27,023 bases of DNA from an uncultured Ardenticatenaceae bacterium (GTDB lineage Bacteria; Chloroflexota; Anaerolineae; Promineifilales; Promineifilaceae): the NCBI GenBank assembly GCA_964429835.1, contig CAYSDT010000001.1:1-27023 (forward strand), in the 5' to 3' direction. Both the position numbers and the translations under genes were made by a program. The first letter of the stretch is position 1. Each line of letters begins with the position of its first letter. This document shows, one piece after another, positions 1-24,631 of the stretch. The notes below the pieces were generated by a model, which saw only the letters and a list, made by a program, of their open reading frames with translations, was not told where the DNA came from and made no database searches.

Positions 1-3000
1 TCGGCACGTTCTTCTGTTTCGCTGAACAGACGGATATTTTCCAATGCGACGGACACATAATTGGCAACACCCACCAGCAAATCCATGTCAGATTCTTTGT
101 ATGCGTTGTACTGGTCACTTTGGCATGACAAAACGCCCAGTCGCTTTGTGCCTACTTGTAAAGCAACAAATAGCTTTGAAACAGAAGGATGCTGTGAAAT
201 ATCGCCAACCACAACAACTCCTGACTGATCTTGTTGCAATGCCTCTTCTGGTGTCAAATGCTGTAACAAGGGTCGGCCTGTTTGCAAAACCTGATAAGAA
301 GATGTCTCTGGCGTAATTGGTACTGGTAATGGGTGTTCGTGATATTGGCCGCCTTCAAAATTACTCACGATTGTTATCGCATTTAGTTCATCGTCATACA
401 GCCCTGCAAAAAAGGCATCTACGGGCATGATGGCTTGTATCCGCCGATAAACAACTTCAAGCATCTTTTCCATATCTGATTCTTGCGAAACAGCACTGGC
501 AATCTGATTGATTGTCGTCAATCGCTTTGCTTGGGCTTCGGTGGCGAAGAGGGCGCGTTGGGTTTCGTCTGTAAGGCGAAGGTTTTCGATGCGGGCGGTG
601 AGTTGGGCGGTAACGGCCGTTATAATTTCAGTCGTCTCTGCATCCCACTCCTCATCATCGTCATGCGAAAACAGGGCAAGATTACCGATTTTTTCGCCAT
701 AAACAAGCAAAGGATGGTCATATGCCGCCGTTTCCATTTCCTCTATTACATCCGCTCCCGCGCCACTGTCGTACACAAACGACAACTCTTGTGCCTGTGT
801 ATCCACATAAGAATCCCAGCCCTCGCGTGTCAGGCGGCGTGTCAATACATCTAATTCAGCCACAGCCTCTTCCGATTGCTCAAACAAGCGTGCATTTTGA
901 ATAGCAAAGCCGATCTGGCTACCGACAGCAGCCAACCACTCCACATCAGCATCACGTCCAGTCAGCACCTCTGTGCTAAACAGGCAAAGCGTACCTAATA
1001 CATCCCCGTGCGCCTGCATGGGAACACCCTGATACGCCTTATATCCCCGTGCCAATACGCCCGTAACATCAATCGGTGCGTATTCCGCCAAGTTTCCCAA
1101 CACAATCGGTTTATTGTCCTGGTAAACCAGATCGCAAAGCGTTCCATCAAGCCCGCCACTTGCGCCCAGAATTGCGGCCCATTCTTCTGGTAAACGGTAC
1201 GCTTGTAAGTCCAACGAATCAGTTTCCGTATTTACAATGCTAAACAGCCCTGATCCAAACCCAGTCGATGACAGCACTTGTTGCAACACCTCATCCAGCA
1301 CGGTTTCTAAATCTAATGTGCCGCTGGCTGTTTTGGTGATGGCAAGTAACGCCTCTGTTTCTGCCAATGCCCCTTGTGTTTCACGATATTGCTCTGCATT
1401 TTGCAAAGCAACGGCAATCTGCGAAGCCAACGTCGTTTGGATATTACGATCCTCTCTGGAGAAATAGTCAGTCTTGTCTGATTGAATATCCATCACACCC
1501 AACACATAGTCTCCAAGAATGATGGGAATCGCCATTTCCGCTTGTGTTTTAGGCAAATGCGGATTGGTCATATAATCAGGTCGCGTACGCACATCGTTCA
1601 CGGTAACGCCAGATTTCGTTCGTACTGATTCAGCAACGACCGAGTGGGGGTGGTCAAGCGCGATCTGGTGGTGTTCAGCAACCAACACCCTGCCCGCCTC
1701 ACCAGCACCAGCCATCAACACCATTTTGTCACCATCATCATTCATCAAATAAATGTGAGCATGATAATAACCAAAATGATCCTTGATCGTGTCGGATACA
1801 AGCTGCAACAACGGTTTTATTTCCATGATGGCTGAAATCGTGATGCTGATATCGGCTACTGCTTGTAAATTGACTGCATGTGCTTCAATTGCGGCTTCAA
1901 TGCGTTGGCGTTCAGTAATGTCACGGTTGTAAACGACAATGCCCGTCATTTCACCATCGTCACCATAAGTTGCCCGCGCCTTGCGCCATACCTTAACAAG
2001 GGAACCGTCTTTCCTGACGAGATCAGTTTCCACTTCTATATATCCTTCCTTTTTAAGTTTGGGGTACATTTTTTTGAACAGCCCCGCCCCTTCTGCGGTA
2101 AAGAATTTGGTGACATGCTGCCCAATCGCCTCATCCCGTTCGTAACCTAATGCTTGCAAATAAACATCATTACAATCCACCAAAAGGCCTTCTACACTCA
2201 CCAGTTCAATGGCATCGGCAGCGGCATCAAACAGTGTGCGATAACGTTCTTCACTGGCTTTTAGCGTCTCTCTGGCTTGCTTGCGTTCGCTAACATCTCG
2301 TTTTATGGCAACGAAATGGGTGATTTTATCCCCCATCGTCCGCACAGGGGTAATCGTCATCTCGTCTGTATAAAGCGAACCATCCTTGCGTCGGTTAATT
2401 ACTTCTTTTTGCCAAACACGGCCGTCTAAAACGGTATCCCACAGGTCTTTGTAAAAACCAGGCTCATGCTTCCCTGATTTCAAAACACGGGGATTGCCGC
2501 CGACTGCTTCTTCAAATGTATAGCCTGTTAATGTTGTAAATGCCGCATTCACCCATTGGATCGTGCCACCGATATTAGTGATGGCAACCCCTTCTAGTAT
2601 TGATTCCAGTGCGTAATTTTGTAATTGTAACTGCTCTCGTACATGTTTCCGTTCGCTAATATCTTGGGAAGATGCAACTAAACCAATCGGAACGCCATCC
2701 TCACCTTTTAACAAGGCAACAGCCATCCATGTTGGAAAAGTCGTGCCATCTTTATGTTTATGGCCTACTTCACCTTGATTGCTGCCTGTTTCTATAATTT
2801 TTTGATTGAATGGCTCTACTTCATTCTGTAATTGCTCTGGGGTATGGAATATAGTGAGCGGCTGGCCGATCAGTTCATCAACCTGATAGCCGTGCATTTT
2901 AGCCCATGCAGGGTTGATAAATTGGATATTACCTTCTAAGTCGGCAATAGCTGTTCCGTCGAGACTTTGTTCTATGGCGGCCACCAATCTTATCCATTGT

Positions 3001-3470
3001 ATTTCTTCATGTGATTCTATAGTGCAAGCTGTGGCGGCGATGGCAAGTTTATGAAACAACGGCCGTTTTTCCTCAATTTCCTCCTCCGACAATGGATCAC
3101 CCTTTTTCAACACGATCATGACCCCATAATCGGGCAAATCAAAGCCGTATTGATGGCTGTCTTCATGTTGATTAACAAATGCAAGCGTCTCCGTGCCTTG
3201 TTCCAACAGTGCTTCGGCTTGCTCCAGCGCAGTGCGGTAAGCGGCATTGCGCTTGATGCGCCCTTTGGTGTACTGCTCTTGCAATTGGGAATCTCCATTC
3301 CCCATCGCCACCCGCTGATACACCCCAAGAGAAGAGGCTGCCAACTGCTCGAAAAAGGCCGCCCCGCTCTCTGCTAACATCTGATGCAGATCAAGGCTGT
3401 TGCCAATCGACAGCGACAACTGATAAAGGGCTTCCACACGCTCTGTTTGTTTTGTGGTTGAATCACTCAT
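1..3470 (-). CDS. Soluble multi-PAS/multi-GAF sensor protein, 3' end truncated by window edge (>=1156 aa): degenerate GAF-like N-terminus, 3 PAS, GAF, GAF, Trp half-GAF module, GAF
   Basis: Hand translation from ATG at 3470 (MSDSTTKQTERVEALYQLSLSIGNSLDL...) is open to base 1 (...VSVALENIRLFSETEERA). PAS/PAC motifs include INPAWAKMHGY, VNAAFTTLTGY...NPRVLKSG, RKDG and DISERK/DVSERK/DITER. GAF motif FGYYHAHIYL...TQAEMAIPIILGDYVLGVMDIQS. Starts 14 nt after the stop of the upstream gene. Absent from the ORF track because it has no stop in the window. Confidence 0.92.
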   Translation of the reverse strand, partial: MSDSTTKQTERVEALYQLSLSIGNSLDLHQMLAESGAAFFEQLAASSLGVYQRVAMGNGDSQLQEQYTKGRIKRNAAYRTALEQAEALLEQGTETLAFVNQHEDSHQYGFDLPDYGVMIVLKKGDPLSEEEIEEKRPLFHKLAIAATACTIESHEEIQWIRLVAAIEQSLDGTAIADLEGNIQFINPAWAKMHGYQVDELIGQPLTIFHTPEQLQNEVEPFNQKIIETGSNQGEVGHKHKDGTTFPTWMAVALLKGEDGVPIGLVASSQDISERKHVREQLQLQNYALESILEGVAITNIGGTIQWVNAAFTTLTGYTFEEAVGGNPRVLKSGKHEPGFYKDLWDTVLDGRVWQKEVINRRKDGSLYTDEMTITPVRTMGDKITHFVAIKRDVSERKQARETLKASEERYRTLFDAAADAIELVSVEGLLVDCNDVYLQALGYERDEAIGQHVTKFFTAEGAGLFKKMYPKLKKEGYIEVETDLVRKDGSLVKVWRKARATYGDDGEMTGIVVYNRDITERQRIEAAIEAHAVNLQAVADISITISAIMEIKPLLQLVSDTIKDHFGYYHAHIYLMNDDGDKMVLMAGAGEAGRVLVAEHHQIALDHPHSVVAESVRTKSGVTVNDVRTRPDYMTNPHLPKTQAEMAIPIILGDYVLGVMDIQSDKTDYFSREDRNIQTTLASQIAVALQNAEQYRETQGALAETEALLAITKTASGTLDLETVLDEVLQQVLSSTGFGSGLFSIVNTETDSLDLQAYRLPEEWAAILGASGGLDGTLCDLVYQDNKPIVLGNLAEYAPIDVTGVLARGYKAYQGVPMQAHGDVLGTLCLFSTEVLTGRDADVEWLAAVGSQIGFAIQNARLFEQSEEAVAELDVLTRRLTREGWDSYVDTQAQELSFVYDSGAGADVIEEMETAAYDHPLLVYGEKIGNLALFSHDDDEEWDAETTEIITAVTAQLTARIENLRLTDETQRALFATEAQAKRLTTINQIASAVSQESDMEKMLEVVYRRIQAIMPVDAFFAGLYDDELNAITIVSNFEGGQYHEHPLPVPITPETSSYQVLQTGRPLLQHLTPEEALQQDQSGVVVVGDISQHPSVSKLFVALQVGTKRLGVLSCQSDQYNAYKESDMDLLVGVANYVSVALENIRLFSETEERA

Positions 3471-3484
3471 AACGTCTACCCTGA

Positions 3485-6151
3485 TTAGTTTAATTCCACG
3501 ACTGCTTTTTTAATTTTCAATGCACGACCTAACTCGGAAACGGCCGTTTTCATCGCCCCTTGCACCGTTTGCGCCCCTTGAATCTTCTGACTAATTTCGT
3601 TAATCAGCCGTTCACGCTCGGCACGTCTTTCCGTCGCTTCAAATTGGCGTACATTTTGTATGGCAATGCTGATCGATCCAGCCAATGTGACTAACAGACG
3701 TTGATCGTCCTCACCGTACCGTCGATTTTCATGGAAACTTTTAAGGGCAATCACACCAATCACCTCGCCAGCAGCCAACATCGGGACAGCTAAATAAGTG
3801 TCTGGAATACGCATGTCCCCTTCTAACACACCGCCCCGCGCCAAAAATTCTTCCTCTGCGCTCTCGTCATGGGTGCTGTTAAAAATAAGCGGCCGTTTTG
3901 TGCGAATCACTTCGGCCGTAAAACCACCGTTCTTATCAGCCAATCGGGATGGGATATGCTGTATGCCAACATCTGGGTTGTAAAAATAAGGAAAAACCAT
4001 CATTCGGGATGACGGGTTATACAAGGAAAAATAGATGCCTTTAGCCGCAAACGCTTCTTGCAAACGGGGTCCAATGCTCGCAAACAGCGTTGATAAATCA
4101 AGATGCGTAGAAACCATCTCGCTAATCTCATTCAGCAGGAGTAATTCTTCACTACGTTCTTCCGTCTGGCGCAAAGCGTCCTGTGTGGCCGTGAATAAAT
4201 TCAAGTTTTCCAACGCCAATCCAACATGATTAGCAATACCAAACAGCAGTGCAATATCCTCTTCGGTAAAATCGTGGAATTGGTAATTTTGCACCGACAT
4301 CACACCAATCGCCTTCGCCCCCGCCATCAGCGGAACAAAGGCCATGTTAGACGGCCGTTGATTTTCATCATCATCACCGCCAGTCAGCAATAAATTCTGA
4401 TCCTCCGTTTCCCTGTCCCAGAACTCCTCTGGTGTGTAGTTCACATAAATCGGCTTGCCGCTCTGCCAAACTTGTGTCGTCTCTACTTTCGGATCGACTC
4501 CCATAGGAGGAACATCGTGTATCACCTCATCATCATAGAAATAGGGGAAAATAAAATGCTTATGCGTTTCATCATACATCGCAATGAAAAAGGTGTCGGT
4601 GACAACAACACGGGCGACTTGTTCGTGAACGGCCGTAAACAGTTCGCCTTCACCAAGCTGTTGCGAAACGACCTGCGCCACCTCGTTGATGACCGCCAAC
4701 TGCTCGGCTCGCTTATCCAATTCCTGACGACCCAACTCAGTTGTCTCTAACAGCCGCGCCCGTTCCAGCGCGTCCGCTATCTGACGTGATAAGCCGTCCA
4801 GCAGTAGTTGCTCATCCGCCGTTAGTGGCTCGCCCGATGGGTTACGCACGTCCAAATAGCCAATCGTTTCCGATTGCACCGTCAGGGGGATGGAAACAGG
4901 AATATCAGCATCGGGGAAAACGGCCGTTTCTGGCATCGTCGCCGAATTCATATTCACAATGTCGCGTGCAATCGGCTGCACCTGTTCGTTATCGAACATA
5001 TAACCCCGAATCTGCCGCTCATCATCGGCCAAAAATGCTTGCCAATTTTCACGCGCCATCACCTGTTGTAATTTATTTAAGTTTTCTAACGCTTCTTGCC
5101 GTTGTTGATATTGACGCGCATTTTGAAGAGCAACGGCCGTTTGTGCCGCCAACAGCGTAAGGATACGCGCATCCTCCTCATCAAATTGCCCAACATCAGC
5201 CGCATGCATGTCCAAAACACCCAACAATTCATCGCCAACCAACATCGGTATAGCCAATTCACTGCGCGTATCTGGCAATAGTTCGTGCGCCATAAAATGG
5301 GCATCAAGCTGCACATCACTGCTTATAACACTGCGACGTGTTCGCGCCGCTCGTGCAACCAGCGACCGTTCCTGATGCAAAGAAATTGAAAGAACTGCAC
5401 GACTTTCAGCCGCCAACATCTGCTCGGCAGCAGAGCCAGCAACGGCCGTTAATGCCAACTTTTCTTGTACTACATCAAACAAAAAGATATGCGTATGATA
5501 CAAATCAAACCCATCACTTATTGATTCAACAACAGTATCCAACAGTTCACGCAAATCTAAAATAGCGGCTATATCTACACTAACCGTCGCCACCGTTTCC
5601 AACTCAACCGCCCGCTTCAACGCAAGTGCCTGCTCTTTTTCCAGATCAACAGCTAACTGGCGCTCACGTTCCATCCGCTCCTGCAATAAAATTTGCGAGC
5701 TTTTGTAATATAATTCCTGCTCGGTAAGCACCTCATTTAATCGTGCATCTATATAGCTTTGTAAAAACAATTGCCGATAATGATGAAGCGTTGCCTCCGC
5801 CCTTTCCCCCACTCCTTCCAGCATGACAACCGCTCGATCATGCAGCTTATCTATCAAAAGAACAGCGACCATAGGTGACAACCCATCACTCGCCAACGTT
5901 CGCACATGCGCCTGCAATTCTGGTTGAGAAATCTGTCCACTGACATATTGAATAAACACATCAATAATTTGCTGACTGGTCTTGGGAATATGGCGCATTG
6001 ATCCCAACGCGGCCGTATTATCAAAAATATGACGGCGTAATTCGCCTGCCATTAGTTCAATCAGCATATCCGTTTGAGCCGACAACTGTTCTATGCAAAT
6101 TGGTGATAAAACAGTCTCAGGGTTTCTCGATTGGGTCATTAGCGCACTCAT
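3485..6151 (-). CDS. Soluble GAF-domain protein (888 aa): helical N-terminal domain, GAF, Trp half-GAF module, 2 GAF, partial-GAF C-terminal tail
   Basis: GAF signatures TRSELAIPMLVGDELLGVLDMH, AFVPLMAGAKAIGVMSVQNY and YLAVPMLAAGEVIGVIAL, each followed by a Q/H..A.AL.N helix. No hydrophobic TM segment. No kinase, cyclase or phosphatase motif recognised. Confidence 0.92.
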   Translation of the reverse strand: MSALMTQSRNPETVLSPICIEQLSAQTDMLIELMAGELRRHIFDNTAALGSMRHIPKTSQQIIDVFIQYVSGQISQPELQAHVRTLASDGLSPMVAVLLIDKLHDRAVVMLEGVGERAEATLHHYRQLFLQSYIDARLNEVLTEQELYYKSSQILLQERMERERQLAVDLEKEQALALKRAVELETVATVSVDIAAILDLRELLDTVVESISDGFDLYHTHIFLFDVVQEKLALTAVAGSAAEQMLAAESRAVLSISLHQERSLVARAARTRRSVISSDVQLDAHFMAHELLPDTRSELAIPMLVGDELLGVLDMHAADVGQFDEEDARILTLLAAQTAVALQNARQYQQRQEALENLNKLQQVMARENWQAFLADDERQIRGYMFDNEQVQPIARDIVNMNSATMPETAVFPDADIPVSIPLTVQSETIGYLDVRNPSGEPLTADEQLLLDGLSRQIADALERARLLETTELGRQELDKRAEQLAVINEVAQVVSQQLGEGELFTAVHEQVARVVVTDTFFIAMYDETHKHFIFPYFYDDEVIHDVPPMGVDPKVETTQVWQSGKPIYVNYTPEEFWDRETEDQNLLLTGGDDDENQRPSNMAFVPLMAGAKAIGVMSVQNYQFHDFTEEDIALLFGIANHVGLALENLNLFTATQDALRQTEERSEELLLLNEISEMVSTHLDLSTLFASIGPRLQEAFAAKGIYFSLYNPSSRMMVFPYFYNPDVGIQHIPSRLADKNGGFTAEVIRTKRPLIFNSTHDESAEEEFLARGGVLEGDMRIPDTYLAVPMLAAGEVIGVIALKSFHENRRYGEDDQRLLVTLAGSISIAIQNVRQFEATERRAERERLINEISQKIQGAQTVQGAMKTAVSELGRALKIKKAVVELN

Positions 6152-6179
6152 AAGCTCTCTCTTATTTACGATTGTGCAG

Positions 6180-6214: not shown

Positions 6215-6272
6215 AATCTAAAAAGGGTTATTTCTTGCCGTAGTCACAAGCAAAGGCAATGTGTTTTACTAA

Positions 6273-7188: not shown

Positions 7189-7329
7189 ACTGATGTACTC
7201 CTTTACATGACTCATGGGCTGGCTTCTGTTTCACCATTTAGTGAATGCCAACTAGTTTTGATTTTGGACTGTTTTATAAAACCATGACAAGCGTATTATC
7301 TGGATAATAAAATAGTCCTTTCTAATTCT

Positions 7330-7501
7330 GTTAGTGTCATTAGTTATTCGCCACCTTTTGTACTCGGCAAATAAATTCGCTGCTACGATTGCAAAGTCGG
7401 TCTACACCGACTGAGAGCCAGACCGCGTAGGCGGTCTTCGCAATGAGTAGGCGCGGTTTTAACCGCCAGCCAACAAGTGGCTAATAATTCATGACACTAA
7501 C
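7330..7501. mobile_element. 172-bp MITE-like element with 25-bp TIRs, 7-bp target duplication and three internal hairpins
   Basis: Left TIR GTTAGTGTCATTAGTTATTCGCCAC versus right-end reverse complement GTTAGTGTCATGAATTATTAGCCAC (22/25). Direct repeat TAATTCT at 7323-7329 and 7502-7508. Internal hairpins AGTCGG-TCTACA-CCGACT, GACCGC-GTAG-GCGGTC and GCGGTT-TT-AACCGC. Confidence 0.75.
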
Positions 7502-10500
7502 TAATTCTCCGACTGTCCATTTTCTACTGACGCAAGCGCATCAGCTTCATCGGGTTCAGTCAAATAAACATAAGTTTGCCATCCCAATGCGCGTCCAATT
7601 TCTTGGGCGGCAATACGCAGGATGGATTCGGGGTCAACGGCCGTGTTGACCTGACTGCTAATTTCGCGCATGGTTTGCTCACGACGGGCGCGTTGCTGTG
7701 TGGCCTCAAACTGACGCACGTTCTGCACCGCTACACCAACTGTCCCCGCCAACGTGCCTAACAAGCGTTGATCATCTTCATTATAGATGCGTTGTCCCTC
7801 GCCATGATTCGAGCCGATGCCAATCGCACCTACAAGATCATCACCGACAATCATTGGTACACCCAAGAAAGAGTTAAGCGAAGTGGCGCGGTCGTCACCT
7901 AAACGGCCGCCTTGCGCGGTGTATTCGTCGGCAGACCTGCCTTCGCTGTTAAAAATGAACGGCTTGCGCGTCAAAATGACCCGCTCTGTAAAGCCGCCAT
8001 CCGCATCGGCGTGACGTGAGGGGACATCAAGATCGCCTTCCTCATCACTGTGGTAATAGGGGAAATCAATCCGCTCATCGGCTGGATCATACAGGGCAAA
8101 AAAGATGCTGGTGGCAGCTAATGCGCTCTGAATACGCTGCCCAGCAGTGCTAAACAGTGAATCCAAATCCAGTTGAGCAGATACAATTTCGCTGATTTCG
8201 TTGAGCAATGCCAATTCGGAGGCGCGTAAATCAAGGTTTTGCCGCCCTAGTTCGGTCACTTCCAACAATCGCGCCCGTTCCAGTGCCTCAGCGACTTGGC
8301 GTGCGGCTGATTCCAGCAATAGTTGCTGGTCGTCGCTCAGTGGCTCGCCAGATGGGTTGCGTGCGCTCAAGCCGCCGATGGTGATGCCTTGTACAGTTAA
8401 TGGGGAAACGGCCGTTTTTCCCTCCGCAAACACCTCATCATCACCCTGTTCAACCGCCTGTACCGTATGCTGATCGTACAGATACCCTTGCACAGTTCGG
8501 CTCTGATTGGTCATAAACGCTTCCCAGTTCTTGCGGGAGACAATCTGTTGTAATTGGGTTAAATCAGCCAACGCCTCTTGCGCTTCCTGATATTGCGCCA
8601 CATTTCGCAATGCGGCCGCGATCTGCGAAGCCAGCGTTAGCTGTACATTGATGTCAATGTCAGAGAAGTGGTTCAACTCATCGGAATGTAAGTTAATCAC
8701 ACCCAGTAATTCGCGGCCAAGAATCAGCGGTACGGCCAAAATGGCGCGGGTATCTGGCAAATCAGGCATGGCTATATAGCTTGGTTCAAGCTGCACGTCG
8801 TTGGCAAATAGGGCTTTGCGCTGATGGGCGGCGTGCGAAATAATGCAGGTTTGCTCATCTACAGATATGGTGGGCATATCGTCTGTGGAAGGATGGTTTT
8901 GGGGGTCAGAAACGGCCGTTAATCGCAACATCCGCGTCTGTTCATGCAGCATGAAAATCTGCACATGGTAAAGAGTAAATTTTTCCCGCATCGCGTCAGC
9001 CACAAATTGCAACATTTCATCACGGTTCATCAGACCAGCCGCCGAACGGCTGATTTCTGTCACCAGTTGCAGTTCACGCGCCTGTTTGGCAAACGTATTT
9101 GCCGTGCGCTTGCTCACGATAACATTTGCCAACGTATTGGCAAACAGCGACGTCAATTCTGGCTCATACACACGCATCGGCTTTTGGGAGAATAAATTAT
9201 CAACAGCCAGCCAGCCGATGGGCTGCTCGCCATCCAATAATACGGCCGCAATTTGCCAACCATGCCCGACAATGTCCCCTTCGTGACGCAGATCTAACGC
9301 AGGGCTTACCTGCCGCCCCTGCCGAATTTTCACGATGGATGCCGCCCATGAATCGGTAAATGGAATTTGGAAATGGTGGGCATCATACACGTTCCCATCT
9401 TGCCCCATTCCAAATGTTCCCATCATCAAATCGCGATCTTCGTCAATCAGCCACAATCGTATGCGATCAAACTGTAATTTTTCACGTCCAACGGCAACAG
9501 CCTGTTCATACATCAGTTCTAATGTATCCAAACCGCTCAAATCGGTGCTGATTTCATGGAGAAGTGTTAATTTAGCCTGAAAATCGCGGGCAGATTGTTC
9601 GCTGTTTCTCAGCGCCGTTGCCGCCGCATTACGCTCGGTGATGTCGCGCATGGTAATGCTGAATCCAGCCACATTGCCGTCAGCATCATAGTTAATGCCG
9701 ACCGTCTCTTCCACTGGTGTCAATGTTCCGCCCCGCACTTGCAACATCGCTTCTGTAGACCAACTGCCTTGCTCGATGGCAATCGGCAAGCCAACCTGCA
9801 TCAGTTTGGCCGCCTCTTCTGGCGCGTACAAGCTGCTGCTATTTATGCCAGAAATATCGTGGTCGGCTGGCAGTCCCATCATCTGTAGGCCAGATGGATT
9901 GATGTATAAGGCGTTGCCATCCAATGTGCCTACGCCAATAAAATCAGGGTGGTTTTCAACAATACCAGCCAACAATCGCGCTTGCTCGGCCAGTCGTTGG
10001 CTTTCAATGGTGACAGCTAACAAGCTGGAAATCTGAAGGATAAAGCCGACATCAATGGAACGGAAAGCATCTTTCTGTGTACTGCCGATATTAAGAACGC
10101 CAAAGGCGGTCACGCCCATAGAAAGCGGGGCGGTTATGACACTTTTGATATTGTTACTCTCCCATCGTCCGCTGTCGGCAAAGTCGGATAACGGCCGTTC
10201 ATCGGGCAAGCGTATCATTCTATTTTCAGTAACGGCCGTTCCAGCCACCGTTGCCGTCACTGGCAAAGATTTCCCAACAGCCACTGTCTCAGTCATCCCG
10301 CTCGTTGATACAACCTCAAGTTCTGTTCCCAAATCAGACAGAAGCAGAATCGCAACACGATCCGCCTTCATAAGTTCCATCACATGCGTTCCCGCAATGC
10401 GATACACATCTTCCAAGTTATTGGCGACCGTCAAAGATGCGCTTAACTCGTTTAATAACGAAAGATTGCGTGATTGCTGCTCACTGGCGGCCAATGTGTC

Positions 10501-12774: not shown

Positions 12775-15700
12775 TTACCCAACGTCTTTAGCATCTACGC
12801 TGCTATCCATACTCACGGTATCATCTAAATAGGCAAATATCTCTAATCCCATCGCCTGACCAACTTCTTTAACGGCCGTTTTCAATACAGATTCTGCATC
12901 AACGGCCGTGTTCACACGGTTCGTAATCTGGCGCAATGTTTGCTCACGCCCCGCCCGCTTCTGCGTTTCATCCAGCAAATTGCGATTTTCAATGGCAACA
13001 GTCGCCTGTATACCAAATGCGGTAAGCAAATCTACCTCTGCCTGCGAAAAATCAGGTTGATCAAGTTGATTGATAGCCGTCAATGTTCCCAAAATTTTAT
13101 CTTGATAAATTAGCGGCACAACGATAAGCGAGCCAACATCATGTCCCAAGCGATATTCGTGTGCCATTGCGCTTTCGCGCTCATCACGCATAAATTTAGG
13201 TGCAAAAGCGGTCTTGCGCTCGCGCAATGTCCAGCCGCTCAACCCGTTCCATATATCGCTAAAGCTAACATCCAGATCAACCTTTTCGCGCCCCACACCG
13301 CCAGCGACAGTATGCTCCACGACCTCTTCATCTACATCACAAAGCAATAAAAGCAATTGATTGGCATTGATAGACTCTGCCGCACCATCGGCAATTATGC
13401 GTAATAGCTCCGTATTGGTTTCAATGGTTGGCAATACGCGGCCAATGTTGTACAGCGTTTCGGTATGGTGACGGGCTTGCTCAATTTCCTCAAAGAAGCG
13501 GGCGCGTTCCAACGCCTCTCCAACTTGTGTGGAGATGGAGTCCAGCAACTCCTGGTCAGCCTTTGACAGACTGCCCGCATCGGCTCGTATAGCAATTTTG
13601 CCAATTTGTGTGCCGCGCACGCTCATGGGCATGATGATGTGGTCGCTGTTGTCGATTTGTAAACGGCCGTTTTCCGTCATTACCTGCACCCCATCGGCCG
13701 TTGCCACATACCCATCCTGCTTGGCAAGCGTGCGCCATCCTTCCTGCGCCGCCGCCCGTTGCAGCGCATTCACCTCATCAAGCGCGATCTGTGTTCGCTC
13801 GTACTGTTGCGCGTTTTGCAACGCAATCCCAATTTGCGTCGCCAATGTGGTGTAAACAATCACCTTCTCTTCAGAAAACGCATATGGCATTACCGACTGC
13901 ACATCCAACACACCTAACAATATGTCACCACTCTGCATCGGGATGGCTAACTCGGCTGCCACGTCGGGCAGTAAAGGATGGGAAACAAAATTAAGTTCTG
14001 TTCTAACATCGTTTAGCACGACAGGTTGACGTTGCAATGCGGCACGGGCAACCAATGAATAGGGATTATTGATATGCAAAGCGTGTTGATTGGCAACCAA
14101 TTGCGCCCCAACTTCACCAGCACCCACCGTTGAAAGCAGTTCCTGATTCAATTCATCCAAAATAAGGATGTGTACATGGTAAAGGTTGAATTTCTCTTTG
14201 ATTAAATCAACCGTTGTCTGCATTAAAGAAAGGGGGTCGCGCATGGCAGAAACGACAGATCCCACTTCTGTCACTATTTGTAGATCCTCATTGTTCGCCT
14301 GTGTTTGCGCCAGCAAAAACTGTGTTTGCAAATAAGCAGTAATACGCTGCCCCACACCACCGATTAACATGCTGTCTTCATTTTCAAACTCGTAAATCGG
14401 ATCATATGCCACCGTAATATGACCAATATGGCGGCTCTGCACACGCATTTCCTCAATAATATGGCGTGGATTTTGCCCCGCATCAGCATCGCCATACAAC
14501 TGCCCATCCCACGAAATAGAAGCGGTACAACCCTCTGCATGGCTCATCGCTGTCGGGATTTCTGTCGCTGCCCACTCTAAAAATTCAGGGACAGGGCTGT
14601 TTTCTTCAATCTTGCGCCCAATACCATTAAACAGGTCAAGTTCTGCCAACCGTTCCTCCAGCATAATTTCAACTGCTTTAATTTCACTGATGTCCGTCGA
14701 AATACCAGCGACCGCATACGCCTCCCCTTGCTCATCAAGCAGTGGAAATTTAACAGAAATGTATGTGTGCATTCCATCTTCATGGGGAATATCTTCTTCG
14801 GAAGTGATGGTTTCCCGTTGCGCCAACACGGCAAGATCATTCTGACGTACAACATCGGCAATATCGGCTGAAAAAATATCGTGATCAGTTTTACCACTGA
14901 CTTCGTCGTTACTGACATTAAACAACTCTTCATACCGTCTGTTGACAAGCATGTATTTGCCGTCCGCGTGTTTGATGTAGATAACGGCCGTTGCATTGTT
15001 AATCACACCACCAAACAACGCCTCGCTAGATCGCAACGCCTCTTCCGCCAACTGTTGACGTGTAAACAAGAGTGCGTTTTCAATAGCGGCGGCTATCTGA
15101 CTGCCTATCGTCTCAAAGACAAGTACGGCTTCCTCATCAAACCCGCCTGCTTTGGCGTGATGCAACACCAATGTACCTAATACGCGAGTGCCTACCAGCA
15201 AGGGGACGACAATCTCTGATTGCGTGTCGGGCAATAATGGATGGGCGCGATAGGTGGGAGAAACGGCCGTTTCCATATCCAGCATCGCCCGTCGCCCCAG
15301 CACCGCCAACCCATTACTGGATGTCGATCTCACTGGCAATTGATGCGACCGCGCCAGCAGACGTTCACCGACTTCCCCAGTCGCCGCTTTCAGAATCAAT
15401 CTATCACCATGCAACGTAGAATCCAATAGATAAATTTGAACATGATACAGCCAATACCGCTCCTGAATCATATCAACAGCGTGCCGCATCAACGGTTCAA
15501 CATCACGCATCTGGGTGATAGTGCTGCCAATATCGGCGATATTAAGCAAATCATCAGCACGTCTGCGTGCCTGCCCATCCAATTCTGCTGACAGCGCAAT
15601 CGACTGTTGCGACTGCTCCTCTGCTAATTGACGTGCCTCTGTCAAGCTATGCACAATGACATATTGCAAAGCGGTAATGATGGCAAGAATAATCGTCCAA

Positions 15701-16191: not shown

Positions 16192-19100
16192 CAGCTTTGC
16201 CCTCCATTTGAGGTGGATGCAGTCTCGGCTGTATTTTCCAGATAAGCGTACACATCTACCCCCAACAGTCGGTTAATTTCGCGGGCGGCCGTTTGCAACA
16301 CAGTTTCAGCGTCAACGGCGGTATGCACACGCTCAGAAACTTCGCGTAATAGCCGTTCCTGACGAGCGCGGGCGCGGGTCTGTTCAAACAGTCGCGCACT
16401 TTCCAAAGCGACGGCCACATAGTTAGCAATGCTAACCAACAACGAGAGATCGGTTTCATCATATTCGTCATAGTTATAACTTTGGATAGAAAGCGTACCT
16501 GTCACTTCCTGCCCTGTATGCAATGGTGCATACATCACCGATACGGTCTCTCTATTATCATTTGTGCCAATAAACAACTCACCCCGCTTGCGATCTTCCA
16601 CCACTTCTTCTGCTGTAAGATTATTCAGAATCGGCTCGCCATTTTGCAAAACACGATAGCTATAACTGTCTGGATGAAGCGGCAGCGGCTCCTGATGGGT
16701 GCGTACATCCTGTTCATAAATGAGGGGATACTCCATCAACTCCGTCTCTGCGTTGTAAAGCATGATGTGGAATGTGCCAACATCCATCAACAGCTTCATT
16801 TCCGTGTAAATGGCTTGCAGTAATGGTTCAACATCTACTTGCTGGGAAGCGATTTGGGCAACACGATTTACCGTTGCCATCTCTTCACTGCGCCGTTTGG
16901 CTTCGGCAAGAGCTTCTTCAGTTTGTTCAAAAAGGCGTGCATTTTGCACTGTCGTGGCTGCCTGAGCAATGATGGTCTCTGCTAATCGTAACTGATCTTC
17001 TGTAAATTGTGTGTTGGCGGTCTTAATGTCCAAACCAACTGTACCAATCAGTTCCCCACCAATAATCATTGGGAAAACGGCAACCGCTTGAATGTTCTCT
17101 TTACGGAAAATGCCATGTGTAACGGCCGTTAATGGACTACTCTGCGCGTCAGCCACAAACGCATATTGGCGCGTATCCAATACACGTTGAGTCAACAAAT
17201 TCCCCTCAATGGGGATGACTAAGCCTTCCAAATCCGCACCCGCTGGATAGGACGCGGTGATGATGAGATTTTCACGCGCTTCATCAAGCAATGTGATGCT
17301 GGACTGGGCGATATTCAGCACAGAAACAAGCTCTTCGGCCACAATGCGAAGGCTTTCTTGCAAATCTAATGTTTTTGAAATTTTAGCGACAATTTCGTTA
17401 AGCTGTTCCATCTCGTGGCCGCGTCGCTGTGCCATAGACAGCGCGTTTTCTGTCTGGTTTTCTAATCGCAACGCTTCGATATGGCTGCTCAACTGGGCGG
17501 CAACTTGCTCTAGCAAAACGGCCGTTCCCCCATCAATCCCATTCTCCGCTTCCACCGAAAGGGAGCCAATTTTCTGCCCGCCAATGACGAGCGACTGAGA
17601 AACGGCCGTTTTCAACGATTCCAAACTATCCGCTTCTTCTACGTTCTCTTCTATAAACGGCGTAACTTCATTGCCATCATACTGATACCCATGCGCCAAC
17701 GCCTGCTCACTTTGCTGTTGATATGAATCCCAGCCTTCGCGGGTCATGCGGCGCAATGCGCGTTCCGCTTCGTTGCGGTAACGGTCTGTTTCATCCAATA
17801 AGCGCAAATTTTCAATGCGCTGTCCTACCTGTTGCGCTACCAAATCAAGCAATTCCTGTTCGCCATCTGTCCACACCCGATCTTGCAGACCAACGATTTG
17901 CAGGCTGCCGACCTCTTCTTTATTGACTAAAACGGCCGTTTCCATCCCATTTTCCCCAGCCGCCAACGTCGTCAACTCCTCATCCAGTAATTTCGTTTCA
18001 ATTTGATCGTAACGATAAGCAATATGCTCGCGTCGATCAACCGCATCAAGATACGCATCCCAATTTTCATGCGTCAACAGACGTGATTGCGCTTCAATTG
18101 AAGATTGCACCTCTTCTCTTTCACCAAACAGTTCTGCATTTTGCCAAGCGATGGCTAATTGCGAAGCCAACACATCAAAGGTGATGAGGTCACTCTTTGT
18201 CAAAATACCAACTTGATCGGCCTGCATGTTCAGCGTGCCAATTAACTGCCCGCCAACCATTAACGGCACTACCATTTCAGAGCGTGTGTATGGCAATAGC
18301 TCATTGGAACGGAACATCAGATCATCACGCACATCTTCAACAACAACGGCCGTTTGTTCCGCCGCCGCCACACCATTGATCGAGCCTTTACCGACAGGCA
18401 AATAGTGGGCGCGCCGCATCAACTCTTCACCAACAAGACCCGTACCAGCCTGAATACGCAATGTCTTCCCCAAAGCGTCCACACGATAAATTTGTGTGTA
18501 ATACAGATGGAACCGCTCGCCGATAAGATTAACGGCCGTGTCCAATAATTCACGCCGATCTGTAATCTGCGTCAAGCGACTGCCAATTTCGGCCGCCAAC
18601 TCCAACCCATGCGTGCGCTGGCTCACCTGCAACTCCAACGAACCAACCAACGTCCGCAATCGCGCCGCCATCTCATTAAAAGCCTGCGCCAACGCCCCAA
18701 TCTCATCTTCTGACTCAACATCTAATGTCACATCCAAATTACCAGCAGCAATTTCTTCAGCCGATGTTGTCAACAAAATAATAGGATTGGCAATTGTTTG
18801 ACTAAAAAAAATGGCAAGACTGGGGATAAGCAATAAAGCAATCGCCAAGATCGCCAAGCCGGGGGCTAACGCAGCGTTAACAGGAGCTAAAACGGCCGTG
18901 TTTGATATAGAATTTGCCAAATACCAACGCGGACTTGTCTCGCTGGGAATCATCACTGGCTGGTACGTCAATAAATCAAGATCGGTTTTCAAAGAACCCG
19001 TTTTACCCGCCAACAACAGATCTCTCAATCCAGGAAAATCATCAACGATAGTGATTTCCATTTCTAAATCCCGTCCCCATCGTTTATCTTCATCAGGGTG

Positions 19101-20324: not shown

Positions 20325-20340
20325 AATAGCCGCTTTATCG

Positions 20341-20389
20341 AATTAACAATTGACAATTGATAATTGACAATTGTTAATTGACAATTAAG
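20341..20389. repeat. Seven-unit heptamer tandem repeat (consensus AATTGAC), STRR-like
   Basis: AATTAAC AATTGAC AATTGAT AATTGAC AATTGTT AATTGAC AATTAAG, located in the 126-nt intergenic gap just upstream of the 1377-aa gene. Confidence 0.85.
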
Positions 20390-20450
20390 TTGTCGGAGTG
20401 GAGATTCATTTAATCCCTAAACTTTGGAAGGTTTTATTTAATCTCCATTC

Positions 20451-22841
20451 CTAAGATTTATTTCTATTGATTTCCGCAATTGCTTGTTGCACACCCAACG
20501 ATTCACCCAATTCATGGGCGGCAATATGCAACACACTATCCACATCCGTCGCCATCTGAATTTTCTGCCCGATGAGGTTGGCGGTCGCTTCCCGATCTGC
20601 CCGCTCGCGAATATCCTGATACAGGTAGATGTTTCGTAGAGCAACGGCCGTTTGGTTAGCAACCGATTGCAACAAGTGCATATCATCCTCACCCAACCCC
20701 CCGACCTCATTATGTTGAACATCCAGCACGCCCAACACATCCTCTGTAGTAAATGCGATTGGAATCGCCGCCTCAGAGCGCGTATCAGGAAGCAATGAAT
20801 TCGGCTGCCACTCATCATCTTGCAACGTGTCGGCGATCAAAATCGCCTCATTATTCACGGCCGCACGCCCAACCAAACCAACGCCCACCGGCATCTTATG
20901 CCCGCCGCTCATCATGCTCAAGCCAGCCTCACCAGAGCCGCCAACCATATTCAGCTCATTTAATTCCTGATCAAGCAGATAAATTTGCACATAGTAATAC
21001 CCAAACGTCGCCTGCGTCACCTCTACCACCTCAGCAACCAATCGTTCCTGATCGAGGATGGTAGAAATATCACGGCTAATTTCAAGTGTTGTTGCCAATG
21101 CCAGCGTCCGTTCTGCTACACGATCTTCCAGTCCAGACATCGTGTGCTGAATTTCATCAGCCATATTATTAAATGTAACCGTCAACTGACCGATCTCATC
21201 TTTGGTTGTCACCTCTGCCCGTGCATCCAAATCACCAGAAGCCACCGCTTGGGTTGCCTCAATCAATCCTGTAATCGGACGAATAAGCACACGGCCGAAG
21301 AGAGCAACCACAATCGAAGAGATTGCCAACGCGGTCAACCCCAACACAATCAATCCCCGCTGCTGTTCATCCACAGGTTCTAAACTGGCCGCAAGCCCCT
21401 CTTGAGCGACAACTGTCCAGCCCAAATCAGCGATAATTGGTAAATTGGCAGAGGTACGCAAATCAACCTGACTGACCAACTGGGAACTATCGGCAAATTC
21501 AACAATGGCGTAAGAGTCATCTTTCACCGCCGCCAACAGTTCAACCGTTTCTGGTGATAAATCAAGTGTAGAAAAAGTAGTCGCATCCAAAAGTTGATCA
21601 CCAGGTAACAGCAATCCTAACTGACCTGTTTCACCCAAACCATCTTCGGCTGCCAGCAATGCAGCACGCAAATCACGCAAACTGTATGTTGCATGCAATG
21701 CACCAATTACACGACGAGAACTGCGCTCAAGGAGAGGGATGGCGATATCCACGTTAATCACGCGATTCACCGCGTCTACCTGTGGATCACTGATATACGT
21801 CAATCCACCAAAAACAACAGGCCACCACTCTTCGTCGCTATGATCGTAATGCTCAGTGCGGTTTGTGCTGGAAACCAACACACCACGTTTATCAACAATA
21901 AATGTCTCTGAGTAGGCGGGGAATGAGCGGCGAAATTGAGATAATTCTACAGCCAGCGTATTGTTCAACACTTGTTGAATCAGCGGGTCTGTAAAATCAG
22001 CCGTATGCCACGCTTCATCTTCTTCTGTTACTTTGTCAGCAATTTCTGTTGCTGTCTGCCCCAGATATTCATCATTATGTGTTTGTAATATCGACTGGAA
22101 AGCGTTATTAAAGCTGAACGCTTGCATCAGGCTAACTTGTTGGGCAAGTAAATCCCCGATATTTGCCGCTTGTATGTCAGCTACGCCATACAATGTATTG
22201 CCGACTGCGGTGGTAATGGTTTTGCTGGTGCTATTGCCAATAAAGAAAACAACACCCACGACTGCTCCTGTTATGACCAACACATTGGTAACAAACAGTT
22301 TGACGAGCAAGCTATAACTTGGGAAACGACGGATAGCAAAGTAAATAGCTACTAACATGCTGCCGAGTAAAAGCAGTGGCACAATAATATCTAATGGAGG
22401 AGGCAAGGGGGTGCGTGCATACGGCCAAAACAGGTCTAGCAATACCAGGCCAATGGCTAATGCAACGTCAGCAATCGTTCCCCAAATCAAATACTGGGGG
22501 AGTGTTTGTGACACAATAACGGCCGTTAATACGAAACTGACAACCGCCAACATCAATCCAATATCCAGTAACTGTATAGTGATACCATATACCGAAATCC
22601 AAATGATTACGATAATTAATACGCTGCCAATGGCAACACGGCCGTTTCTAATCAGCCATATATTTATCACCGCCACAATAAATATCATCGTTGGCAACAA
22701 TGTCTTTACGAAATCCTGATCCCCTAGCAAGCGTACCACAAAAGAAGCCACGCTTAACACCAGTGTCGTGACAAGGATGACGATGCCGATACGCAACGCA
22801 CGCGCCTTTAGTTCTGCTGCATCCACCGTAGGCTCTATCAT
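20451..22841 (-). CDS. Membrane sensor-like protein (796 aa): ~6 TM, dCache-like domain, TM, HAMP, GAF, partial-GAF tail
   Basis: TM-rich N-terminus. Cache-like TFIVDKRG...DEEWW...YISDPQVD. HAMP LIRPITGLIEATQAVASGDL...DEIGQLTVTFNNMA. GAF FGYYYVQIYLLD...TRSEAAIPI. ATGA overlap with the upstream gene and GGAGG 7 nt before the start. Confidence 0.93.
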   Translation of the reverse strand: MIEPTVDAAELKARALRIGIVILVTTLVLSVASFVVRLLGDQDFVKTLLPTMIFIVAVINIWLIRNGRVAIGSVLIIVIIWISVYGITIQLLDIGLMLAVVSFVLTAVIVSQTLPQYLIWGTIADVALAIGLVLLDLFWPYARTPLPPPLDIIVPLLLLGSMLVAIYFAIRRFPSYSLLVKLFVTNVLVITGAVVGVVFFIGNSTSKTITTAVGNTLYGVADIQAANIGDLLAQQVSLMQAFSFNNAFQSILQTHNDEYLGQTATEIADKVTEEDEAWHTADFTDPLIQQVLNNTLAVELSQFRRSFPAYSETFIVDKRGVLVSSTNRTEHYDHSDEEWWPVVFGGLTYISDPQVDAVNRVINVDIAIPLLERSSRRVIGALHATYSLRDLRAALLAAEDGLGETGQLGLLLPGDQLLDATTFSTLDLSPETVELLAAVKDDSYAIVEFADSSQLVSQVDLRTSANLPIIADLGWTVVAQEGLAASLEPVDEQQRGLIVLGLTALAISSIVVALFGRVLIRPITGLIEATQAVASGDLDARAEVTTKDEIGQLTVTFNNMADEIQHTMSGLEDRVAERTLALATTLEISRDISTILDQERLVAEVVEVTQATFGYYYVQIYLLDQELNELNMVGGSGEAGLSMMSGGHKMPVGVGLVGRAAVNNEAILIADTLQDDEWQPNSLLPDTRSEAAIPIAFTTEDVLGVLDVQHNEVGGLGEDDMHLLQSVANQTAVALRNIYLYQDIRERADREATANLIGQKIQMATDVDSVLHIAAHELGESLGVQQAIAEINRNKS

Positions 22842-24631
22842 TCTGCATCCTCCAACGAAACATGCCCATTCCCATTAAACATATCGGCATCATCTGGTTT
22901 TGTTATTCCAAAATCAGCTAACTGCACCGTTGCTTGCCCCGACCCAACAGAACGCCCAACCTCGCGTACTGCAATTTGCAATGCACGCTCCACTGTCGTT
23001 GCCTGCTGAATTTTCTGGTTAATTTCATTGATACGCGCCTGTTGGTCAGCCATTTCCCGTGTATCTGCATACAAGCGGGCATTTCGCAGGGCGATGGCAA
23101 CTTGATTAGCGATGGATTGCAGCACACGAATATCTTCATCACGGATACTACCTGCGGCATCCTGCTGCACATCTAACACGCCCAACAGCACATCACCAAC
23201 AGAAATAGGAACGGCCGCTTCTGATTTCGTCTCTGGCAGTAAGGGGTTATGGAACCAGTTTTCATCCTCAGTCACATCGGCGGCAACGATGGGCGTATTT
23301 GTTTCTGCCACCCGTCCCACCATCCCTGCGCCCAGCGCAATGGCTCGCCCTTGTGCCAACATAACGCGCCCCGCATCACCCGTGCCGCCAGCCAGCATCA
23401 ACATATCGCCACTCTTGTCTAGCAGATAAATGTGAACATGGTAGTAGCCAAATGTTTCCTGAATTTGTTCAACAACTTCTTTAACTAACTCTTCTTGCGT
23501 CAATATGGTTGACAGGCGGCGACTAACTTCGATACTGGATTCTAATGCTTGTGTGCGGGCAACAACGCGCTGTTCCAAATCATCAATTAGCACCTGTATA
23601 TGCGCGGTCATTTCATTCATCGCAACCGCAAGCGTTGAAATCTCTTTAGGGCCGTCCAACGGGGCTTGTGCGGCAAAATCGCCATCTTGAATTTTAACGG
23701 CCGTTTCTTCCAATGCTGTAATCGGCTCCGTAATGCGATTAACGACAAAAATACTGACGACAACCGCCACCACAATTATCAACACAATCACCCCCGCTAA
23801 TAATAGCGCGGCCATTACCGTTTCCTGCTGTGTCAATGCCGACAAACTCTCTACCACTACATTAAACGCCCTAAATTTCAACTTCATATCGGCCGTAGAA
23901 ACAAAAGAGGGTTCACCAAACAAACCCGCATAACGGCCATCTTCCTCTGGAGGTGTAAATGTCATTCCCTCCAATACCACATCCTTGTCCATATGGGCGA
24001 TCACGCGATCACGCACATCAACAACGTAAATGCTTATCCCCTCTTGCACAGGCACTTCAGACAGGAAACTCCATATCGTTGAAAAATCAACCTCTGCCAC
24101 CAACACGCCCGTCCCCCATCCCGTTTCAGGATCAATTAACGGATGTGAGATCAGCATAGTCGGCTTACCGCTCTCTTCATCTAGTTGCGCGTCACCATAA
24201 TGCGTATCTAAGGTGAGCAACGGTTGAGCATAAATGGGATCAGAGCGATCCCACGCTTCTCCATTCATTGGCGAAACAACTCCATCCAAAGAGACGTAAG
24301 CAAGCTCTTCCGCATTCCGATCAAGCAATGTCAACGAGCGAAAAGCGTCGTTATGCGTTAAAAGATGTTCCAGAGCCACTTCCTGCTCGGCCTCATCCAT
24401 CGCTGTCAAATTCTGTACCTTCGACAAAAACGCCATTTCATCGGTAATGGTAGATACAAAATTGTCAACTTGCACGGCAACACGCTGCGCCAACACTTGC
24501 TGCAAAGCAAGCGCGTCATCCTCCCGTGCGACCATATTACGCGGCACCAACACAGCGACGATGATCAGCAAGGGAGCGATAGACATGGCGATATAAGAAA
24601 ATAATAGTTGAGTGCGAATGCTCTTAAACAT
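22838..24631 (-). CDS. Membrane sensor-like protein (597 aa): TM, dCache-like domain, TM, HAMP, GAF, partial-GAF tail; first gene of the array
   Basis: Two TM segments flank the Cache-like region (FRSLTLLDRNAEE...HPL...GVLVAEVD...YVVDVRDRVIAH). HAMP ITEPITALEETAVKIQDGD...EISTLAVAMNEMT. GAF FGYYHVHIYLLD...TKSEAAVPISVGDVLLGVLDVQ. Confidence 0.93.
   Translation of the reverse strand: MFKSIRTQLLFSYIAMSIAPLLIIVAVLVPRNMVAREDDALALQQVLAQRVAVQVDNFVSTITDEMAFLSKVQNLTAMDEAEQEVALEHLLTHNDAFRSLTLLDRNAEELAYVSLDGVVSPMNGEAWDRSDPIYAQPLLTLDTHYGDAQLDEESGKPTMLISHPLIDPETGWGTGVLVAEVDFSTIWSFLSEVPVQEGISIYVVDVRDRVIAHMDKDVVLEGMTFTPPEEDGRYAGLFGEPSFVSTADMKLKFRAFNVVVESLSALTQQETVMAALLLAGVIVLIIVVAVVVSIFVVNRITEPITALEETAVKIQDGDFAAQAPLDGPKEISTLAVAMNEMTAHIQVLIDDLEQRVVARTQALESSIEVSRRLSTILTQEELVKEVVEQIQETFGYYHVHIYLLDKSGDMLMLAGGTGDAGRVMLAQGRAIALGAGMVGRVAETNTPIVAADVTEDENWFHNPLLPETKSEAAVPISVGDVLLGVLDVQQDAAGSIRDEDIRVLQSIANQVAIALRNARLYADTREMADQQARINEINQKIQQATTVERALQIAVREVGRSVGSGQATVQLADFGITKPDDADMFNGNGHVSLEDAE

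Follow-up and report, generated by a model that had tools for sequence, protein, structure and literature searches.

How does a sensory protein that has no transmitter of its own pass its signal on? Receptors are normally read by an output domain, and the locus described here joins full input machinery to a conserved fragment of a domain at the protein end. The locus occupies most of a 27,023-nucleotide stretch of DNA from an uncultured Ardenticatenaceae bacterium (GenBank assembly GCA_964429835.1, contig CAYSDT010000001.1, positions 1 to 27,023), to which we refer as the window, and it is an operon-like row of genes for six, probably seven, paralogous sensor proteins. Each of the six complete proteins ends in the same tail of about 45 residues, a real and conserved element far beyond chance; sequence comparison relates it to the opening part of a GAF domain (linker helix, helix 1 and strand 1). 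The best reading of the row is two-component signaling with accessory sensors. An earlier note, made from the sequence of the window alone, had described seven giant, tightly coupled sensors without enzymatic output, the complete ones ending in a partial-GAF tail, and had proposed that they signal through a shared partner, possibly encoded to the left of the window.

Sensor Proteins without a Recognizable Output

The window contains seven large open reading frames (ORFs), every one on the minus strand; six are complete (597-1755 amino acids, aa) and the seventh is open-ended. Their layout, where TM stands for transmembrane and REGW for a small GAF-like module described below, is as follows.

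22838-24631, minus strand: P1, 597 aa; TM, periplasmic dCache_1, TM, HAMP, GAF, type-A tail
20451-22841, minus strand: P2, 796 aa; about seven N-terminal TM segments, weak dCache, TM, HAMP, GAF, type-A tail
16191-20324, minus strand: P3, 1377 aa; multi-TM, Cache-like PF21623, TM, HAMP, GAF, two REGW, two GAF, type-B tail
12775-16191, minus strand: P4, 1138 aa; multi-TM, GAF, PAS_4, segment of about 140 aa with no Pfam match, GAF, REGW, GAF, type-B tail
7501-12768, minus strand: P5, 1755 aa; multi-TM, PDC/Cache-like, TM, HAMP, two GAF, PAS, two GAF, REGW, GAF, type-B tail
3485-6151, minus strand: P6, 888 aa, soluble; N-terminus of 190 aa without assignment, GAF, REGW, two GAF, type-A tail
3-3470, minus strand: P7, at least 1156 aa, soluble, no stop codon; three PAS, two GAF, REGW, GAF, ending in ...FSETEERA at the tail junction

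The proteins were scanned with Pfam and NCBIfam models, and the stretches left uncovered by Pfam were rescanned under relaxed conditions. The only domains found in P1-P7 by the three scans were dCache/PDC, HAMP, PAS and GAF; HisKA, HATPase_c, GGDEF, EAL, HD-GYP, SpoIIE/PP2C and MCPsignal had no match in P1-P6 or in the visible part of P7. The NCBIfam matches to kinase, phosphatase, cyclase and methyl-accepting chemotaxis protein (MCP) models (SiaA, GepA, DibA and similar) involve HAMP, PAS or GAF parts only, those to MCP models being confined to the HAMP region, and the MCPsignal hairpin (PF00015) was not matched. The rescan found no catalytic domain hidden in the segments that Pfam does not cover. 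The lack of a recognizable catalytic or MCP output is thus borne out by all three scans for the six complete proteins; it cannot be asserted for all seven, as the earlier note had done, because P7 is cut at the very start of its tail.

A hydropathy scan gave P1 two TM helices that flank the periplasmic Cache domain, and gave P2, P3 and P5 about seven N-terminal TM segments followed by Cache, a further TM helix and HAMP. In P4 there is a multi-TM block but, in the Pfam scan, neither Cache nor HAMP; P6 and P7 are soluble. Typical Cache-TM-HAMP receptors are therefore P1 (dCache_1 at 61 bits, with HAMP) and P3 (PF21623 at 69 bits, with HAMP). The Cache/PDC matches of P2 and P5, which also have HAMP, lie under the Pfam cut-off, and P4, P6 and P7 are not receptors of this type.

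The GAF domains of P1-P7 (e.g., aa 378-515 of P1) belong to a kinase-proximal, YebR/fRMsr-like subtype with the pattern GYYHxHIYL ... SExAVPI ... GVLDVQ and no cysteines. There is no cysteine at all in P1 and P2 and a single one in each of P3, P5 and P6. Homologues carry public names such as "GAF domain-containing protein", "cache domain-containing protein" and "putative methionine-R-sulfoxide reductase with GAF domain". The last of these, a Joint Genome Institute (JGI) label given to many homologues because of the GAF subtype, is probably a misannotation, and an enzymatic GAF of the fRMsr type was rejected since the catalytic cysteines are absent from the GAF pocket.

A Conserved Tail at the C-Terminus

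The shared tail, which had been noticed in the earlier note, is indeed present at the end of all six complete proteins. Its consensus among the best P1 homologues is RAEREALIxSIxQKIQxATTVExALQVAVRELGRALG followed by a short strand, and in the window it comes in two types: type A (...QKIQ...ALQxAVRELG...) in P1, P2 and P6, and type B (RARREQxLREIxxxV..D.ExxL.TA..E.G) in P3, P4 and P5.

22916..23056, minus strand: tail of P1, aa 526-572, EMADQQARINEINQKIQQATTVERALQIAVREVGRSVGSGQATVQLA
20466..20606, minus strand: tail of P2, aa 746-792
16233..16373, minus strand: tail of P3, aa 1318-1364
12820..12960, minus strand: tail of P4, aa 1078-1124
7555..7695, minus strand: tail of P5, aa 1692-1738, modeled as helix, break, helix, with no fold after it
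3488..3628, minus strand: tail of P6, aa 842-888, its strand being the end of the protein

A search with P1 at E <= 1e-10 returned 617 homologues. Their sources are named as Chloroflexota or Anaerolineae metagenome-assembled genomes (MAGs), and no catalytic Pfam domain was found among these 617. In 117 of the 120 best homologues, which are 35-70% identical to P1 overall, the tail lies at most 33 residues from the C-terminus. When a tail profile of 47 columns was used for an exhaustive search of 1.84 billion protein cluster representatives, 4,827 of them matched at E <= 1e-3 and 1,064 at E <= 1e-10. The tail is at most 45 residues from the protein end in 139 of the 148 best matches. The nine others have it internally only; these are mostly multi-GAF proteins where the segment opens each complete GAF, and two of them (P0127 and P0245) have a single tail and then a longer C-terminal extension. 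Thousands of protein clusters thus keep both the tail and the position of the stop, and because of this conservation the proteins are not recent truncations, a finding that, had it gone the other way, was to have overturned the earlier proposal.

The mean pairwise identity among P1-like homologues is 37% in dCache, 46% in HAMP, 82% in the linker between HAMP and GAF, 71% in GAF, 60% in the tail and 13% past the tail. The best-conserved cytoplasmic parts are therefore the HAMP-to-GAF linker and the GAF domain, ahead of the tail, and the cytoplasmic module as a whole is conserved far above the sensor, which is the pattern expected of a transmitter-like module.

The Tail Is Homologous to the Beginning of a GAF Domain

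Compared with all PDB sequences, the tail profile matched best to residues 138-181 of 6oap (QRIERERVVSQITQKIHQTLDLEEILQTTVTEVRQFLQADRVFV; E = 2.7e-10), the start of a cyanobacteriochrome GAF domain, and more weakly to 8w26, 2lb5, 6bhn, 3oov, 6xhg and 3w2z. No HisKA domain was matched by the profile in PDB, and Pfam scans of single tails gave nothing significant. When 148 tails were aligned by hhalign with the N-termini of the kinase-proximal GAF domains of the family, 44 columns were collinear (P = 0.0012); the same comparison with the DHp domains of 39 neighboring kinases yielded nothing (P = 0.47).

The AlphaFold2 (AF2) models have the same layout. In the model of P1, built on an 83-sequence alignment with a mean predicted local distance difference test score (pLDDT) of 83, the C-terminal helix of the GAF domain runs unbroken into the first tail helix (498-542), breaks at TTVE, continues as a helix at 547-562 and ends in disorder. 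Residues 1385-1755 of P5 were modeled from a shallow alignment of five sequences (pLDDT 73); here a complete GAF opens with a long helix, a break, a helix and a strand, and the tail is a long helix, a break, a helix and the end of the chain. Foldseek placed the P5 model among GAF, tandem-GAF and phytochrome structures. The term "partial-GAF tail" is supported by profile matches, hhalign and predicted layout alike. The tail is not a complete GAF domain (PF01590/PF13185, an alpha/beta fold of about 130-150 residues with a sheet of 5-6 strands and a C-terminal helix that closes it), since it covers the first ~44 GAF positions and the protein ends 0-30 residues further on; nor is it a photosensor, which would be a complete GAF with a bilin-binding cysteine, since it consists of the N-terminal helix and strand and contains no cysteine.

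The Seventh Gene and the End of the Contig

The visible end of P7, ...ENIRLFSETEERA, lies precisely where the expected tail would begin. P7 is cut at one and the same codon in the window and in the ENA contig k141_2828354 (the NCBI contig JAOZNW010000001.1 of GCA_029933595.1, 26,750 bp, was read at its gatB end only), perhaps because the assembly broke at a repeat or a strain-variable site. When the last 175 residues of P7 were compared with every member of the family, ..xxRA ends at the junction point of P7 continued into a tail in nearly all of the 45 alignments listed, including those with the closest relatives, P3 and an orthologue from the related locus L004. The passage from GAF to DHp in the kinases has a different sequence, ..EQAATVTQLRELDRLKSSFLANMSHELRTP. 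These alignments make it probable that P7, too, is a tail protein, the seventh of the row. A metagenome scan with the P7 C-terminus returned one unrelated locus only.

Related Loci and the Downstream Kinase

Since the contig ends at the tail junction of P7, a kinase partner would not be visible here. Related loci are designated by L numbers. When 185,579 species-representative genomes were scanned for a single type-A tail pattern, ALQVAVREL, 70 loci were confirmed, 67 of which are labeled Chloroflexota (Anaerolineales, Anaerolineaceae, Ardenticatenaceae, Ca. Villigracilis, Ca. Trichofilum and others). The remaining three come from bins labeled otherwise, where they occupy short contigs and are probably the result of misbinning. 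The tail family appears confined to Chloroflexota, mainly Anaerolineae. In 71 loci, we counted 148 tail-bearing ORFs, and the tail is C-terminal in 144 of them. The number of tail genes per locus is 1-4, and at 47 of the 71 loci there are 2-4 in a one-strand row. No positional rule for tail types A and B within the arrays was seen in this sample, which is biased to type A.

The recurrent gene order begins with a histidine kinase, an OmpR-type regulator, a hybrid kinase and periplasmic binding proteins, followed by 1-4 tail genes. Past the tail genes come a histidine kinase, a fusion of PALP with a receiver (REC) domain of about 550 aa, a single REC protein of about 127 aa and a ThrC-like enzyme dependent on pyridoxal phosphate (PLP). 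The next complete same-strand gene past the last tail gene could be judged in 46 loci; in 38 of these it encodes a histidine kinase, often 0-40 nt away, and in the remaining eight, binding proteins or fragmented ORFs are next. Arrays which, like that of the window, follow Def-gatC-gatA-...-gatB end in a kinase where the locus is long enough (L069, L062, L052). In the closest syntenic relative, L004, whose P1 orthologue is 69% identical, gatB is followed by P1 and P2, then by a binding protein, a P3-like gene and P4, where the visible part ends. The supposed shared partner to the left of the window fits these loci well, where the kinase after the tail row is usually followed by receiver proteins.

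Many of the downstream kinases are soluble and consist of an N-terminal coil, one to three REGW modules, one YebR-like GAF, HisKA and HATPase; no recognizable ligand-binding domain was found in many of these soluble kinases. The GAF domains of tail sensors and of neighboring kinases are 37-44% identical. Longer, one-piece kinases with the layout TM-4HB-HAMP-GAF-REGWx2-GAF-HisKA-HATPase (e.g., 1347 aa in L012) also occupy this position. A short tail sensor (sensor-HAMP-GAF-tail) and a soluble kinase together are this one-piece layout, from sensor to kinase, split over two genes.

Two features of the related loci were observed besides. A gene for a ParA/MinD-like ATPase (about 265 aa) separates the kinase from the last tail gene in L006, L009, L014, L031, L034, L038, L047, L051, L059 and L074. 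The genes for the PALP and Response_reg fusion, the single-domain receiver and the second, ThrC-like PLP enzyme are found, e.g., at 14513-16168, 16182-16568 and 16597-17808 of L012; their position past the kinase suggests that phosphorylation controls a PLP-dependent enzyme.

Proposed Mechanism

We give an even chance to the reading in which the tail proteins are accessory sensors, or co-sensors, that associate with a downstream histidine kinase, here encoded beyond base 1, through their conserved GAF domain and the GAF stub. Variable inputs (a periplasmic Cache, a multi-TM block, PAS, several GAF domains) are joined to a conserved cytoplasmic end made of the linker helix, the YebR-like GAF and the C-terminal stub of a further GAF. 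The sensors, which have no transmitter of their own, would form parallel dimers, bind a histidine kinase containing GAF and REGW through the GAF plus the stub, and modulate its autophosphorylation, so that one kinase could integrate several periplasmic, membrane and cytoplasmic inputs. The kinase would then phosphorylate receivers, which in many relatives would be the single REC protein and the fusion of a PLP enzyme with REC. We infer the physical coupling of tail sensors to the kinase, and the part of the tail in it, from gene order and conservation. The tail may be the contact surface; the conservation of so many polar positions in it speaks for a specific partner.

Several points weigh against this reading. 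Adjacency of genes is not interaction, and kinase-rich neighborhoods are common in these genomes, many loci having more histidine kinases and the OmpR-type regulator upstream. No kinase or receiver is visible in the window, which ends at P7. Because the genome scan was seeded with ALQVAVREL, the sample of loci is biased to type-A tails and possibly to one kind of neighborhood. No feature of the kinase correlates with how many tail genes there are. Finally, the AF2 models are models of monomers in which the tail has a moderate pLDDT of about 72-75, and no docking is shown by them.

Alternative Explanations

The strongest competitor, which we consider rather unlikely, is a structural one: the tail would be an end-cap, where the C-terminal GAF helix and the two tail helices bundle in a parallel dimer and fix its register, with no partner specificity; any signal would in that case be passed on by the GAF domains or by some other surface, or else the role of the proteins would be to buffer ligands. 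The GAF helices of phytochrome dimers form such a helical bundle, and in the AF2 models the tail is a continuation of the C-terminal GAF helix plus a second helix, the strand being unformed. This plain helical prediction, together with the fact that GAF and linker outrank the tail in conservation, leaves room for a mere dimer end-cap. However, the polar tail positions RAERE, QKIQ, TTVE and RELGR are strongly conserved in a family whose members are only 35-45% identical overall, and a simple hydrophobic cap would not require them; the short strand past the tail helices is also kept.

A second alternative involves the REGW module, a mini-GAF-like unit of about 120 aa with the consensus ...RRLTREGWxxY...GYxYD..V.P...PLxVRGExIGxL...ELxxxVAxQLSxHIENLRL. 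Pfam does not detect it; the window holds six copies, two in P3 and one each in P4, P5, P6 and P7.

17397..18113, minus strand: REGW tandem of P3, aa 738-976, two modules
13420..13785, minus strand: REGW of P4, aa 803-924
8200..8577, minus strand: REGW of P5, aa 1398-1523
4685..5095, minus strand: REGW of P6, aa 353-489
507..869, minus strand: REGW of P7, aa 868-988

The C-terminal half of REGW is homologous to that of GAF domains, with PDB matches to the GAF domains of DevS and DosT (E = 3e-4), and a REGW hidden Markov model (HMM) cross-matches the ordinary GAF domains of the window. In the related loci, the HMM found 512 segments at E <= 1e-3, many of which are C-terminal halves of ordinary GAF domains, and about 35 full-length modules above 40 bits; nearly all downstream kinases have at least one strong REGW module.

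It could be imagined, then, that the tail is the N-terminal half of a mini-GAF which is completed in trans by a REGW-type module (or a GAF) of the kinase or of a soluble paralogue. Besides the homology of the C-terminal halves and the presence of REGW in the kinases, this is suggested by proteins in which an internal tail copy stands directly before a REGW-type core, the two making one mini-GAF in cis (P0122, P0125, P0154, P0169, P0214 and TAIL851 of L069). If true, whole rows of membrane and soluble sensors would plug into one kinase by domain complementation, a previously unknown wiring to a two-component transmitter. We nevertheless regard such complementation as improbable. REGW has an N-terminal helix of its own, and in the AF2 model of P5 (low to moderate confidence) it is a self-contained four-stranded unit bounded by two long helices; one-piece kinases join GAF to REGW without a tail in between; and a one-to-one stoichiometry of tails and REGW modules was rejected, there being no numerical relation between the two in complete arrays.

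Much less probable still is that the tail is a degenerate DHp (HisKA) hairpin that has lost its histidine, the proteins being kinases without a catalytic domain that pair with the DHp of a true kinase in the manner of RetS and GacS. A visual resemblance of SISQKIQSA to the H-box NMSHELRTP, and the helix-turn-helix form of the tail, speak for this view; yet the profile comparisons described above reject this, for neither PDB nor Pfam gave a HisKA match, the tails align with the GAF N-terminus and not with the DHp of the 39 kinases, and the GAF-to-DHp passage of the kinases differs in sequence. The least credible view, that these are decaying or recently truncated GAF kinases, pseudogenes or assembly artifacts with a functionless leftover as a tail, can point to P7, for which every assembly of the contig reaching that end stops at the tail junction. 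It is rejected because clusters at 50% identity retain the tail and the stop position by the thousands, as do 144 of 148 ORFs from 71 loci of many MAGs, and because reading frames of up to 1755 aa are intact.

Comparison with Known Systems

Returning to the co-sensor reading, we compared the tail proteins with systems to which they bear partial resemblance. Phytochrome and cyanobacteriochrome GAF domains (6OAP 138-181, 2LB5/6BHN, 3W2Z) are homologous in sequence to the tail over about 44 residues and have the same succession of helix, break, helix and strand, but in them the segment continues into a bilin-binding GAF of about 150 residues, whereas the tail proteins stop and have no chromophore cysteine. 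The fRMsr/YebR family (COG1956) has a similar GAF subtype (GYYHxxIYL ... SExAVPI ... GVLDVQ) and differs in its catalytic cysteines, which are absent here, so that its name on the homologues is a COG label uninformative on function.

In mechanism, the proposed co-sensors would come closest to sensors that have no kinase or are non-productive and act on another kinase (NreA-NreB, RetS-GacS), and to chemotaxis arrays, in which many receptors serve one kinase. The NreA-NreB-NreC system of Staphylococcus includes a soluble sensor, NreA, which is small, has a single GAF domain and controls a histidine kinase. The tail proteins are similar in being GAF-containing sensors without an output of their own that would act on a separate kinase; they differ in size (600-1755 aa), in being mostly membrane receptors with Cache, HAMP and PAS, in forming rows of up to seven and in their partial-GAF end. 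RetS, which possesses receiver domains in addition to a complete kinase core, contacts GacS by way of its DHp. Sensors of the RetS/GacS system converge on one kinase by protein contact and not by phosphotransfer, and the same is proposed for the tail proteins, which, in contrast, have neither DHp nor catalytic domain, and whose tail is unlike a DHp.

In chemoreceptor arrays (MCP-CheW-CheA), many transmembrane Cache/HAMP receptors act on one kinase, as is proposed here, but neither the MCP signaling hairpin and methylation helices nor CheW and CheA are found in the present case. The ParA-like gene of about ten related loci recalls the ParA-like proteins of some chemotaxis clusters, which are involved in the positioning of chemoreceptor arrays. 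Literature searches turned up nothing on the tail family, on a conserved GAF stub at the C-terminus, on REGW modules or on such an arrangement of extra input sensors for a shared kinase.

Gene Spacing and Other Features of the Window

The tight coupling ascribed to the sensor genes holds for some of their junctions and not for others. The distances from P1 to P7 are -4, 126, -1, 6, 285, 245 and 14 nt, i.e., the stop of P1 and the start of P2 share 4 nt, P3 and P4 share 1 nt, P4 and P5 are 6 nt apart and P6 and P7 are 14 nt apart; by contrast, P2 and P3 are separated by 126 nt, and the 285- and 245-nt intervals flank a gene that lies between P5 and P6. A scan of the window for promoters and terminators gave counts within or near the range of shuffled sequences (27 terminator-like sites versus 21.3 +/- 4.6) and no site informative on operon structure. 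Two neighboring genes complete the picture:

25227-26675, minus strand: gatB, directly upstream of the P1 sensor row
6397-7215, minus strand: Methyltransf_19 gene, between P5 and P6

The latter encodes an S-adenosylmethionine-dependent methyltransferase (Pfam E = 1.4e-42) and is absent from the recurrent neighbor-gene clusters of the related loci. The interval between gatB and P1 contains a 61-codon ORF (about 24765-24950, minus strand) that is called in two public assemblies (L076 1717-1902, L077 953-1138) and has no Pfam match. The order Def, gatC, gatA, nucleotidyltransferase, aminotransferase, gatB and tail-gene row is kept in many Anaerolineae and Ardenticatenaceae MAGs, gatB-linked rows being present in L033, L043, L057, L062, L063, L065, L067, L069, L070 and L072.

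Some parts of the sensor proteins are themselves without assignment. The stretches of about seven hydrophobic N-terminal segments, located at about 22240-22841 (P2), 19700-20324 (P3), 15650-16191 (P4) and 12140-12768 (P5), have no Pfam match and may be an undescribed membrane-embedded sensor module, which in P2, P3 and P5 stands ahead of Cache. The segment of about 140 aa in P4 (aa 505-655, about 14227-14679) contains a conserved cysteine-bearing motif, ...PEFLEWAATEIPTAMSHAEGCTASISWDGQLYG..., recurs in one protein of L038 and looks like another small sensor module. A homologue search with the N-terminus of P6 found nothing.

Significance

Anaerolineae are common in wastewater and sediment, and the tail family numbers thousands of sequence clusters among them. 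If its members are co-sensors on one kinase, they would represent a natural case of many-to-one signal integration outside chemotaxis. The GAF stub and the REGW mini-GAF, which current annotation hides under generic or misleading names, would thereby be defined as modules. The question of how a sensor without a transmitter passes its signal on is thus made testable.

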